Numbered from the stretch's first letter, positions 2,003 to 33,695 are shown. The stretch: DNA of 64,000 nt from an uncultured Pseudomonadota bacterium (GCA_949295915.1 CASFNB010000006.1:10541-74540), one strand, 5' to 3'. Notes: a model not told the origin generated them from the letters alone. Numbers and translations are program-made.

Positions 2003-2234
2003 TGGCGTACCCGGGGGGCTTGAGGAAGAAATAATCTCCGGTGGAGATTATTTCAACGAAAGGCGCAGATTTGTTAGTTTTGAGGCAAGTGATAACGCTG
2101 CCGATAAAGCGTTACAAATCAAGTGACCGCAGCGCAGTTTGTGAGCTTGCGAACTTACAAGCAAGAACGAACCCGGGTTCGACCATCCGGAAAGCCATGA
2201 CAAAAAAGCCGTCTTCATCAGACGGCTTTTTTTA
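2003..2234 (+). repeat. tRNA-end-associated mini-element, Arg-type unit 1 (232 bp) carrying a tmRNA-tag-like frame
   Basis: Plus-strand order is as follows. TGGCGTACCCGGGGGG copies the last 16 nt of the adjacent tRNA-Arg. A 12-bp hairpin lies at 2028-2054. A start-less frame reads ...RRRFVSFEASDNAADKALQIK-TGA (tag-like part 2085-2126). Then come a hairpin holding the stop codon, a GCTTG-N8-CAAGC hairpin, a T-arm/acceptor mimic CCCGGGTTCGACCATCCGGAAAGCCA, and a hairpin with A/T runs at 2202-2233. Confidence 0.85.
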
Positions 2235-2466
2235 TGGCGTACCCGGAGGGCTTGAGGAAGAAATAATCTTCGGCGAAGATTATTTCAACGAAAGGCGCAG
2301 ATTTGTTAGTTTTGAGGCAAATGATAACGCTGCCGATAAAGCGTTACAAATCAAGTGACCGCAGCGCAGTTAGTGAGCTTGCGAACTTACAAGCAAGAAC
2401 GAACCCGGGTTCGACCATCCGGGAAGCCATAACAAAAAAGCCGTCTTCATCAGACGGCTTTTTTTA
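2235..2466 (+). repeat. tRNA-end-associated mini-element, Arg-type unit 2 (232 bp)
   Basis: Near-identical to 2003-2234 with an exact 232 bp period. Begins TGGCGTACCCGGAGGG. Tag-like frame at 2317-2358 reads ANDNAADKALQIK-TGA. Directly abuts the CCA end of tRNA-Arg. Confidence 0.85.
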
Positions 2467-2543
2467 TGGCGTACCCGGGGGGATTCGAACCCACGACCCT
2501 CGGCGTCGGAGGCCGATACTCTATCCAACTGAGCTACGGGTAC
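2467..2543 (-). tRNA. tRNA-Arg (anticodon CCG)
   Basis: Hand-folded cloverleaf: acceptor GTACCCG/CGGGTAC, D stem GCTC/GAGT, anticodon stem TCGGC/GCCGA with loop CTCCGAC, T loop TTCGAAT, encoded CCA. One U-C mismatch in the T stem. Confidence 0.9.
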
Positions 2544-28019: not shown

Positions 28020-28616
28020 TTACATATTTTTGATGTGGATGGTTAGGTTTGTCTGGGTACATTAACTCCAAACTTCCTTTTTTTATTAAAATATTTAAAA
28101 TGCTTTCTTTGAAATATTTTCTATCTTTATACCCCATAAACTCCATTATATCCAACGCCTTTTTAGGTACCTGACAAAAAGTAAGAATTTTCTCTTCTAT
28201 TGTACCATCAACCGCATTTCTAGCTTGGGGGGGGTAACTTGAGGGGTAACTTGGGGAGTGTCCTTAGGGGTATTGGGAGCAAACTGACGGAAAAAGTCAA
28301 TTTTCCAGTCAACTTTAAACACTTCGCTGTCTTCCAATACCGGTTCATGACCGGCATAGGACTTGGCATACTTGGTTATCTTTCGCACTCCGGAACCTAA
28401 TTCATCGGCCAAACCAATCTCTTTAAAGAAGTTCGCCAAAATAGGATTTTTCGGGTGCGGTATATTTATATCAGGGTTAATATTGCCATGGATAAACGGT
28501 TTATTAGCATTTTCTATGGTTATTTTGTCTGCCTCAATAATCAAACGGGCGTAATAACGATAGGTAAATTCTCTGTGAATCAGCATATTGACCGCAATTT
28601 CTCTAAATAAAATCAT
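27994..28616 (-). pseudogene. Fragment of an AlbA_2/HATPase_c_4-type (RecG-like) ATP-binding regulator, 5'-truncated and frameshifted
   Basis: REIAVNMLIHREF...NPILANFFKEIGLADELGSGVRKI...TPQVTPQVTP stops at 28197. The expected wHTH tail continues in another frame (IEEKILTFCQVPKKALDIMEFMGYKDRKYFKESILNILIKKGSLELMYPDKPNHPHQKY). The frame change coincides with a G8 run at 28227-28234. Confidence 0.6.
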
Positions 28617-29097
28617 TTATCAGAAGGATCGCCTGACATTCTTTTTTAATACCGATCCGATAACCCTCTCAGCCTATAGTGGCGATTCGCTGAACCAAAA
28701 CGATAATCCACTGGAGTTTATAGCAGATAATGTCAACAACCAAATCATCTATGAAAAACAGGTCGTTATCAACCGCGGACTGTCAAGCAATGTCTATAAC
28801 GCCGGAAAAGTTGGACTGATGAGTATCAATGATAACAATCGACTCATTGTCCGTGCCTTAGCTTATACTTGGAAATTTAAGAAACTCTACGAAAAGGGAC
28901 TAAGCACCGATGACATAGCCAAACAAGAAAAAATGTCGAAACGAACCATCTACAAATACCTAAATCTTGCCTACCTCTCACCAAGAATAGTTAATCAACT
29001 TCTCGATGGAACCTTAAACATTAACCTTCAAACACTTTTTGAAATCGCCTCTAAAAACCTGAGTTTTGACGAGCAGGAAAAGATGTTAGCTATTTAA
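28588..29097 (+). pseudogene. C-terminal fragment of a serine-recombinase-type protein (mobile element remnant)
   Basis: LIVRALAYTWKFKKLYEKGLSTDDIAKQEKMSKRTIYKYLNLAYLSPRIVNQLLDG resembles the HTH tail of resolvase/invertase-family recombinases. No catalytic N-terminal domain is present. Confidence 0.4.
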
Positions 29098-33242: not shown

Positions 33243-33378
33243 AGACAGCGCCGACGATAAAGCCTTACAAATCGAGTGACCGCAGCGCCGTTAGTGAGCT
33301 TGCGAACTTACAAGCCAGACAGGGATTTTAATCCCTTCACCCAGATACAAAAAAACCTCCACTACGGGAGGTTGGAAT
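33243..33378 (+). repeat. tRNA-end-associated mini-element, Gly-type partial unit (5'-truncated)
   Basis: Retains ...SADDKALQIE-TGA (stop 33277-33279), the conserved CCGCAGCGCCGTTAGTGAGCTTGCGAACTTACAAGCC core, the tRNA-Gly-like T-arm/acceptor mimic CAGGGATTTTAATCCCTTCACCC, and the hairpin CCTCC-N6-GGAGG. Confidence 0.8.
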
Positions 33379-33620
33379 TGGAGCGGGCTGAAGGAAAGAA
33401 AAAACTTCTGTGAAGATTTTTCTGACGTCAGGCGAAGATTTGTTAGCTTTGAGGCGAGTGACAACGCCGCCGACAAAGCGTTACAAATCGAGTGACCGCA
33501 GCGCCGTTAGTGAGCTTGCGAACTTACAAGCCAGACAGGGATTTCAATCCCTTCACCCGTATAAACTAAATTTGAGATAAAAAAAAGACCTCAACACTTT
33601 TCGTGGAGGTCTTTAGAAAT
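33379..33620 (+). repeat. tRNA-end-associated mini-element, Gly-type full unit (242 bp)
   Basis: Begins TGGAGCGGGCTGAAGG, a copy of the tRNA-Gly 3' end with one inserted C. Hairpin at 33397-33423. Start-less frame ...RRRFVSFEASDNAADKALQIE-TGA (33454-33495). Ends with CAGGGATTTCAATCCCTTCACCCG and a hairpin that has a T8 run on the minus strand. Abuts tRNA-Gly. Confidence 0.85.
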
Positions 33621-33695
33621 TGGAGCGGGTGAAGGGATTCGAACCCTCGACATCAACCTTGGCAAGGTTGCGCTCTACCCCTGAGCTACGCCCGC
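33621..33695 (-). tRNA. tRNA-Gly (anticodon GCC)
   Basis: Acceptor GCGGGCG/CACCCGC (one C-A mismatch), D stem GCTC/GAGC, anticodon stem CAACC/GGTTG with loop TTGCCAA, T loop TTCGAAT, encoded CCA. Confidence 0.9.

Follow-up and report, generated by a model that had tools for sequence, protein, structure and literature searches.

Introduction

IS200/IS605 derivatives lack inverted repeats, cause no target duplication, carry subterminal hairpins and transpose as single strands (PMC10055086). In IS200/IS605 elements, a motif in the 5′ flank (the TAM) is complementary to a guide lying just 5′ of the left hairpin, and the right end is organized likewise (PMC10055086). PATEs, which are derivatives of this kind, and REP/BIME elements are moved by Y1 HUH enzymes and have hairpins near both ends that act in single-stranded DNA (ssDNA).

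Other mobile DNA is tied to tRNA genes. Integrase tRNA islands, CIMEs and tycheposon arrays integrate at tRNA 3′ ends, bring a replacement 3′ end and leave partial tRNAs at their borders. Repeated integration at a single tRNA, leaving partial tRNAs, has been described for tycheposons, and in arrays of this style newer elements displace older ones outward, with content that varies among strains (10.1101/2020.12.28.424599). In still other systems, exemplified by CTX-phi attP(+) with XerCD and by integron attC sites, structure is kept while sequence drifts, tandem arrays are seen and the element does not itself encode the recombinase (PMC3442271, PMC4246890).

The locus analyzed here, a 64-kb stretch of DNA (the window) from an uncultured Pseudomonadota bacterium, has features of each of these systems. 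Its central component, a module of ∼150 nt, resembles PATEs and REP/BIME elements in being small, in lacking a protein gene, in having orientation-specific fixed ends with a hairpin close to the left one, and in being inserted right after a short motif (…GGG or GAG). As in PATEs, terminal inverted repeats and target-site duplication are absent, the latter judged from locus L005 versus the empty sites of L001 and L007. The units that contain the module resemble tRNA islands, CIMEs and tycheposon-style arrays in all of the traits named above, and they share with CTX-phi and integron sites the conservation of structure over sequence, the tandem arrays and the lack of an element-encoded recombinase. 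As for CTX-phi attP(+), the tRNA 3′ copy, terminator and inverted copy of a unit could fold into a mimic of the duplex target.

Three hairpins in the window

Three hairpins with 12-bp stems lie just downstream of − strand tRNA genes (Arg, Gly), at the positions given in a sequence-only reading of the window (Table 1). The matched substitutions described in that reading are borne out by the sequence. The hairpin of Arg unit 2 differs from that of Arg unit 1 by a C-G to T-A double change (C>T in one arm, G>A opposite), and the Gly hairpin has two further positions altered on both arms, along with a single A-A mismatch. First-order Markov simulations predict ∼0.33 perfect stems of at least 11 bp with 3–6-nt loops per 64 kb, and hence a chance origin of such stems is unlikely. 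The remaining long palindromes in the window are A-run/T-run terminators, unlike the three module hairpins.

Table 1. Positions of features in the window and in related loci, and variants of the 12-bp hairpin by context
Feature	Position	Strand	Details
12-bp hairpin, 3-nt loop, Arg unit 1	2028..2054	+	GAAATAATCTCC-GGT-GGAGATTATTTC; 12/12 paired
12-bp hairpin, 3-nt loop, Arg unit 2	2260..2286	+	GAAATAATCTTC-GGC-GAAGATTATTTC; 12/12 paired
12-bp hairpin, Gly unit	33397..33423	+	AGAAAAAACTTC-TGT-GAAGATTTTTCT; 11/12 paired, one A-A mismatch
Module copy Arg1, 148 nt	2019..2166	+	CTTGAGG...CAAGCAAGA; cmsearch match 2016-2142, 157 bits
Module copy Arg2, 148 nt	2251..2398	+	model match and boundary comparison
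Module copy Gly1, 148 nt	33388..33535	+	model match and boundary comparison
Gly0, older module copy, 5′-truncated	33245..33319	+	lacks the hairpin
Direct 16-nt tRNA-Arg 3′ copy, distal edge of unit 1	2003..2018	-	T-stem 3′ strand, acceptor 3′ strand, discriminator, CCA
Second 16-nt tRNA-Arg 3′ copy	2235-2250		
Segment X, unit 1: degenerate inverted copy of tRNA-Arg T-arm and acceptor 3′ strand	2167..2201	+	hairpin CGAACCCGGGTTCG
Segment X, unit 2 equivalent	2399-2433		arms 2421-2437 vs 2459-2475
Bidirectional terminator hairpin borne by unit 1	2202..2232		
Identical terminator copy, directly after tRNA-Arg	2434-2464		
tRNA-Arg(CCG), gene whose 3′ end is repeated	2467..2543	-	
Direct 9-nt tRNA-Gly 3′ copy, distal edge of Gly unit	33379..33387	-	CCCGCTCCA
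Segment X, Gly unit: inverted copy of tRNA-Gly T-arm and acceptor 3′ strand	33536..33565	+	
Terminator hairpin borne by Gly unit, directly downstream of tRNA-Gly	33584..33614	-	
tRNA-Gly(GCC)	33621..33695	-	
Type B element	L001:5355-5535; L005:5370-5725 (- strand view); L007:3559-3729		
Hairpin, Arg context			GAAATAATCTCC / GGAGATTATTTC
Hairpin, Arg2			..CTTC / GAAG..
Hairpin, L007 and L009			AAAATAATCTCC; A.C at foot
Hairpin, Gly context			AGAAAAAACTTC / GAAGATTTTTCT
Hairpin, L002			as Gly, plus 1-nt bulge
Hairpin, Lys context (L004)			AGAAAATTCTCC / GGAGGATTTTCT; one T.G
Hairpin, Pro context			GAAAAAACTTTC-AGT-GAAAGTTTTTTC; perfect
Hairpin, L005 type			ATCAAATAACCG / CGGTTATTTGAT; perfect, 6-nt loop

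A module with three covarying helices

Each hairpin is the 5′-proximal helix of a non-coding module of 147–155 nt with fixed ends (CTKRAG…GCMAGA), which has three covarying helices in all. The second helix is a 7-bp stem (GATTTGT…ACAAATC, with CATTTGT…ACAAATG in the Lys context and GTCTTGT…ACAAGAC in the Pro context); nested inside is a 6-bp stem (GCTTTG/CAAAGC, with variants GTTTTG/CAAAAC and, for Pro, TTTTGC/GCAAAA), next to which comes a short inner stem. Directly 3′ of the long hairpin, nearly all copies have an invariant stretch made up of AAGTGACCGCAGCG, one variable base and AGTTAG. The Arg1 copy comprises the 12-bp hairpin, the compound long hairpin GATTTGT…ACAAATC with its inner stems, the invariant AAGTGACCGCAGCG core and a 3′ hairpin (GCTTG-CGAACTTA-CAAGC). 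The left-end hairpin lies 9–11 nt from the module 5′ end in all copies. The right-end hairpin varies in position and sequence: the window type has GCTTG…CAAGC at a distance of 4 nt from the end, L005 has AATTTTTGT…ACAAAAATT at 11 nt, and the case of L027 is ambiguous. The two termini, CTKRAG… and …GCMAGA, do not form inverted repeats.

Relatives of the module are few. When 185,579 species genomes were scanned for an exact 20-mer, five loci came up, all from MAGs of uncultured Alphaproteobacteria: three tRNA-Arg arrays, one tRNA-Gly array and one locus beside a 46-nt tRNA-Lys fragment and a P4-like integrase. Look-ups of neighboring proteins added L007, L009, L012 and L021, which gave few new copies, with contigs mostly ending at the array. 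A JGI metagenome scan with a 21-base core pattern produced only a chance match (L006, in a high-GC coding region), and the match in viral contig L030 was also chance only. With blastn against GenBank phage records we found a 75%-identical homologue in MT837050.1 (L027), the tRNA-Pro locus of which is also present in two IMG/VR contigs. A covariance model (R1) was built from ten copies, with the hairpin of Arg unit 1 as its helix 1, and a search with this model revealed a far more divergent copy (67 bits) in a mini-element of a second kind in L005. This copy retains only the TGACCGCAGCGC portion of the invariant stretch. The module is known from a few gut Alphaproteobacteria; the source genome of the window has a G+C content of 37%.

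Record MT837050.1 is titled 'UNVERIFIED: Bacteriophage sp.' and contains a UDP-galactopyranose mutase-like gene, epimerases, RadC, methionine aminopeptidase and tRNA-Pro; judging from this gene content, it looks like a fragment of a bacterial chromosome, not a phage. Several contigs (L008, L009, L012, L021, L022, L023, L025 and L026) end in or just before tRNA-Arg or tRNA-Gly arrays. Copy numbers in the MAGs are probably underestimated, because repeats break short-read assemblies.

Thirteen full module copies were available, 12 of them distinct, adjoining four tRNA genes (Arg, Gly, Lys and Pro) and including one insertion in a mini-element; they go back to no more than about five independent lineages (Arg, Gly, Lys, Pro and L005-type), with the Arg copies closely related. 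In a MAFFT alignment of eight distinct variants of the hairpin, 96.8% of cells are paired, 5 of the 12 pairs are changed on both sides, and none of 500 shuffles was as good. The number of pairs changed on both sides rises to 7 once the tRNA-Pro homologue is included and to 10 with the divergent L005 copy (12 distinct copies, alignment fitted to the model), at which point pairing reaches 98.6% of cells. Every lineage has a stem of 12 bp, although the stem sequence has been almost wholly replaced. Uncompensated defects are few, namely the A-A mismatch of the window Gly hairpin, a 1-nt bulge (L002), a T.G (L004 Lys) and an A.C (L007/L009).

The sequence-only reading had proposed that the stem is selected as a structure, in RNA or as cruciform DNA, and is not neutral filler. 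Frequent uncompensated disruptions did not turn up among the further copies, and the covariation of 10 of 12 pairs, the constant length and the nearly complete pairing lend support to the idea that the hairpin is kept as a structure through matched changes on both arms. The other helices behave similarly. Over the 29 pairs of the three helices, 95.1% of cells are paired and 16 pairs are changed on both sides in the MAFFT alignment; with 12 distinct copies, these values are 95.4% and 22 of 29. None of 500 shuffles reached the observed values, and partners that had been slid out of register paired at just 38–58%.

A stem of this kind could also be unselected, with the palindrome homogenized by intra-strand template switching during replication (quasi-palindrome correction). 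Near-perfect palindromes with short spacers are substrates for quasi-palindrome mutagenesis, and the hairpin, with its 3-nt spacer, is a suitable one. The strand-neutral pattern of wobble pairs (see below) also fits a process at the level of DNA. However, helices 2 and 3, which span 40 nt and 23 nt, likewise show compensated changes, and this argues that short-range self-correction is not the whole explanation. Moreover, the 12-bp length is fixed across lineages that share almost no stem sequence, and the rest of the module is constrained, with invariant blocks. We regard palindrome correction as very unlikely to account for the stem.

Units at tRNA 3′ ends

In the window, the module forms the body of units of ∼232 bp, which in the tRNA sense consist of a terminator hairpin, an inverted copy of the acceptor 3′ strand and T-arm (segment X), the body, a direct copy of the tRNA 3′ end and the next terminator. 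The Arg site has two tandem units that are 96.6% identical over 232 nt, and the Gly site has one full unit and one 5′-truncated unit; beside the tRNA-Ser gene of the window, no comparable unit is present. The inverted copy of the Gly unit (33539–33559 versus 33626–33646) is 86% complementary over 21 nt. Direct tRNA 3′ repeats measure 16 nt for Arg and Lys, 9 nt for Gly, 12 nt for type B (below) and ∼36 nt plus the terminator for Pro. The tRNA genes themselves are left intact, with scores of 62–66 bits, so that the units show the pattern of a tRNA-associated element, namely direct repeats of the tRNA 3′ part beside an intact gene.

Given the many terminator hairpins in this region, one might take the 12-bp hairpin for an intrinsic terminator or attenuator serving the tRNA operon or a neighboring gene. 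But the stem is AT-rich, it is followed by no U/T run on either strand (AACGAAAGG on +, TTCCTCAAG on −), the terminator scan makes no call, and every unit is already equipped with a canonical terminator at a distance of 150 nt. On these grounds we rejected this candidate, which has hardly any likelihood.

The arrays differ among relatives. Two window-type units (A) are found in tandem in the window, B-A in L001, and A plus a partial unit in L003; L005 has a long B, then A, then a partial unit, L007 has an A/B fusion, and the tRNA-Gly site of L023 is empty, without any unit. Units at one and the same site are thus polymorphic in presence and in copy number. From these comparisons, the units appear to behave like integrase-type insertions, supplying a replacement tRNA 3′ end and terminator and displacing the older copy outward. 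Type B is a G+C-rich mini-element at tRNA-Arg, unrelated in sequence, with the same layout: it has a direct copy of 12 nt and an inverted T-arm copy, and it brings a terminator of its own. Since type B shares the layout without sharing sequence, the layout would belong to the integration process, with an exchangeable body. In L007, the type B terminator is identical to the outer native one, and the element is fused to the type-A module via a shared ACCCGG.

Other elements use the same tRNA sites in related loci, among them a P4-like integrase island and a serine-recombinase element. At L004:1249-2757, genes for a P4-like integrase of 436 aa and a small serine recombinase come after a 46-nt 3′ fragment of tRNA-Lys(CTT); the island uses the same tRNA with a different identity block (46 nt, anticodon-loop-type), not the 16-nt one. 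At L029:10185-12310, ∼1 kb past the tRNA-Pro array and at the edge of an IMG/VR 'viral' contig, lie a gene for a predicted large serine recombinase of 568 aa and a small upstream ORF of 135 aa. Beside tRNA-Ser in the window (28197–29097), only gene fragments are found; a 139-aa piece matches HATPase_c_4, and the sole match of a 169-aa ORF is the HTH_7 domain of resolvases. These fragments look like the remains of an island at that tRNA.

Two of the tRNA genes have unusual stems. In tRNA-Arg(CCG), the 50-64 pair of the T-stem is non-Watson–Crick in all relatives, U.C in general and U.U in L003 (L003:6150-6226). In tRNA-Gly, a C6.A67 mismatch interrupts the acceptor stem, and the tRNA-Gly of L024 is perfectly paired. 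The 3′ strands may derive from element-borne copies.

Contexts of the module

The same module ends are found in six sequence contexts, and the DNA on both sides is specific to each context. The 5′ flank ends in GGG, or once in GAG. Relative to the tRNA, the module runs antisense in the window, L001–L005 and L007, and in the same sense in L027–L029. In the window type, it interrupts a partial tRNA 3′ copy near the junction of T-loop and T-stem, and in the Pro type it follows G37 of a partial tRNA-Pro copy (GCTTGCTTTGGG, then the module, then CAAGATGCC...CCGACCA). The divergent copy of L005 (L005:5466-5595) lies within a type-B element, the orthologues of which in L001 and L007 are without insertion; this insertion has no target duplication and no tRNA-derived flank, and 2 nt of the target are missing. 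At L028:176-454, two bodies are in tandem with a period of 153 and with no tRNA repeat or terminator between them (junction GCCAGA/AGAGGAAG). Because its ends are constant over contexts, it occurs in both orientations and the L005 insertion is clean, the module looks like an insertion element with ends of its own that behaves as a small non-autonomous mobile element. One caveat here is that the L005 insertion could have come about by homologous exchange with another B element. Another is that copies are few (2–4 per genome) and lie, without exception, downstream of a tRNA gene at a distance of at most a few hundred bases, a distribution that fits hitch-hiking on tRNA-targeting elements equally well as independent transposition.

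These contexts also bear on whether the units are bare attP-like remnants (CIME-like) of integrase-mobilized islands, in which the module would be a double-stranded P-arm and the 27-bp palindrome would bind a dimeric protein. The tRNA 3′ direct repeats, the restoration of the tRNA, the tandem accretion and the strain polymorphism all speak for such an origin, as does the tycheposon report of repeated integration at one tRNA with partial tRNAs left behind (10.1101/2020.12.28.424599). On the − strand, three direct TCACT repeats resemble arm-type sites. Unit size offers a further parallel, ∼232 bp being about the size of lambda attP. Against this stands the finding that one and the same module adjoins the cores of four different tRNAs, lies in either of two orientations and in one case has no tRNA sequence beside it. 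The genome of the window holds two internally complementary hairpin variants, Arg-type and Gly-type, which argues against a sequence-specific site for a dimeric protein, and a protein site in duplex DNA would not call for the covariation seen in the long-range helices. Furthermore, tblastn with three recombinases from related loci (including the L004 P4-like integrase) detected no homologue in the 64-kb window, and the L004 island uses the 46-nt identity block instead of the 16-nt one. The units also differ from integrase islands and CIMEs in being just ∼232 bp long and gene-less, with very short repeats (9–16 nt) and one module combined with four tRNA specificities, and from a classical attP in bearing an inverted copy of the cognate T-arm by the terminator. 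An attP remnant is, in our judgment, an unlikely explanation.

Strand, transcription and coding

The module could instead be an RNA gene that tRNA-targeting mini-elements carry as cargo, its product being a small RNA with a structural role or one that acts in trans. The helices would then be RNA helices, the invariant 14–20-nt stretch would be a seed or protein site, and the hairpin would stabilize the 5′ end of the RNA. Covarying stems around a strictly invariant unpaired stretch are typical of base-pairing sRNAs, and the module is comparable with island-borne sRNAs in its size (∼150 nt), in its arrangement of covarying hairpins round such a stretch with a terminator next to it, and in its residence in mobile DNA by tRNA genes. 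In the Arg, Lys and Pro contexts, the + strand has a terminator with a good T-run after the module, and G.U pairs are present in the stems.

Other data point away from an RNA gene. There is no conserved sigma-70-type promoter on either strand of the module copies, and the DNA upstream of the module is different in each context. Read-through from the tRNA cannot yield the same RNA everywhere, because orientation relative to the tRNA promoter flips. The wobble evidence lacks strand specificity, with + strand-specific pairs about as frequent as − strand-specific ones. RNAalifold energies are similar on the two strands; those for window-type units are −44.7 kcal/mol (− strand) versus −48.2 kcal/mol (+ strand), and those for the module with the Pro copy included are −36.8 versus −42.1 kcal/mol. 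The Gly unit has no good + strand terminator, and the invariant stretch has no complementary target in the 64-kb window. In Rfam 15, only the three tRNAs of the window pass the gathering threshold and the module matches no family; permissive scans of 1900–2600 and of L005:5250-6100 gave only sub-threshold matches, the best being Phe_leader on the terminator (29.6 bits versus a threshold of 55). In lacking a promoter, an identifiable target, a clear strand and an Rfam relative, the module differs from island-borne sRNAs, and we consider the RNA-gene explanation a minority prospect, albeit one worth keeping in view.

In every type, a long open frame begins at a GTG in the hairpin loop and extends through the module (window 2040–2300 and 33409–33580, +). 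A protein-coding module was rejected, since differences are distributed 4/5/1 by codon position. Several other candidates were set aside. A tRNA-like or tmRNA-like gene is not supported by ARAGORN or Rfam, and the 5′ acceptor strand is absent; retrons, group I/II introns and IscB/TnpB guide RNAs give no Rfam signal, and the module is too short for them. A likeness of type B to E. coli RNase P RNA came to nothing, as blastn against E. coli genomes gave only matches with E = 7 in hrpB. As for an oriT or rolling-circle nick site, known nick consensus sequences are absent and the CTTGAT-like string falls within a covarying stem.

Discussion

Whether the module is a non-autonomous mobile element, with hairpins that act in single-stranded form and movement by an enzyme encoded elsewhere, is in our view close to an even call. 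Such a module would be recognized in folded single-stranded form, either as the transposing or integrating DNA strand or as its transcript, and this recognition would be the reason that the stems are maintained. The 12-bp stem would be one of the recognition or structural elements, and the recognizing machinery would be encoded elsewhere in the genome and act in trans. Each unit would integrate at the 3′ end of tRNA-Arg or tRNA-Gly, provide the new 3′ end with its terminator, and push the older copy outward.

The nearest mechanistic analogy is with PATEs and other IS200/IS605 derivatives, although we do not class the module as a member. Its flanks (GGGG, CGGG, TGGG or AGAG) are, by inspection, not complementary in either register to the pre-hairpin GGAA/GAAA, unlike the situation in PATEs. 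In contrast to PATEs and REP/BIME elements, no tnpA or tnpB was seen near module copies in the loci examined, and the low copy number downstream of tRNA genes is likewise a departure from both. Because the rule of flank–guide pairing does not hold and no TnpA was seen, we have not filed the module under IS200/IS605; nor did Rfam give any IS605-related or HEARO match. More broadly, neither transposase nor integrase nor reverse transcriptase was found near any module copy in the loci examined. The mobile-element explanation would make the module a variant of the known kinds of small non-autonomous mobile DNA.

It is also conceivable, by analogy, that these are gene-less elements of an undescribed kind, in which a module of ∼150 nt rides in or builds units of ∼230 bp and an ssDNA mimic of the tRNA-end duplex is recombined by a host or helper recombinase. 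The direct and inverted tRNA 3′ copies round the terminator loop would fold, as ssDNA, into a duplex mimic of the tRNA gene end, which could recombine with the chromosomal tRNA gene, as in CTX-phi/XerCD. Folding of this kind would account for the cognate inverted copy, the tandem arrays, the lack of genes and the conservation of structure rather than sequence. However, the target of a unit is a tRNA gene rather than dif or attI, and genes of filamentous phages and integrons are absent, with no intI in the loci. Inspection of the module ends and of the foot of the long hairpin also fails to show the R″(RYYYAAC)…R′(GTTRRRY) consensus of integron attC. We hold this scheme to be rather improbable.

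The module matches no described family, being absent from Rfam and without an equivalent in the literature searched, including that on gene-less mini-elements at tRNA ends. This rare family combines unusually clean covariation with an odd, tRNA-linked architecture. For the genomes of this clade, the tRNA-Arg and tRNA-Gly arrays break metagenome assemblies, and they have led to a bacterial fragment being filed as 'Bacteriophage sp.'. Should the module prove to be an RNA gene, it would represent a new RNA family, one whose covariation is well supported and whose invariant stretch of 14 nt lends itself to tests for targets. If it is mobile, it would be among the smallest structured mobile elements in bacteria, with a linkage to tRNA ends that follows neither classical integrase nor IS200/IS605 rules, and the enzyme, once found, could expose a new system of single-strand recombination or targeting.
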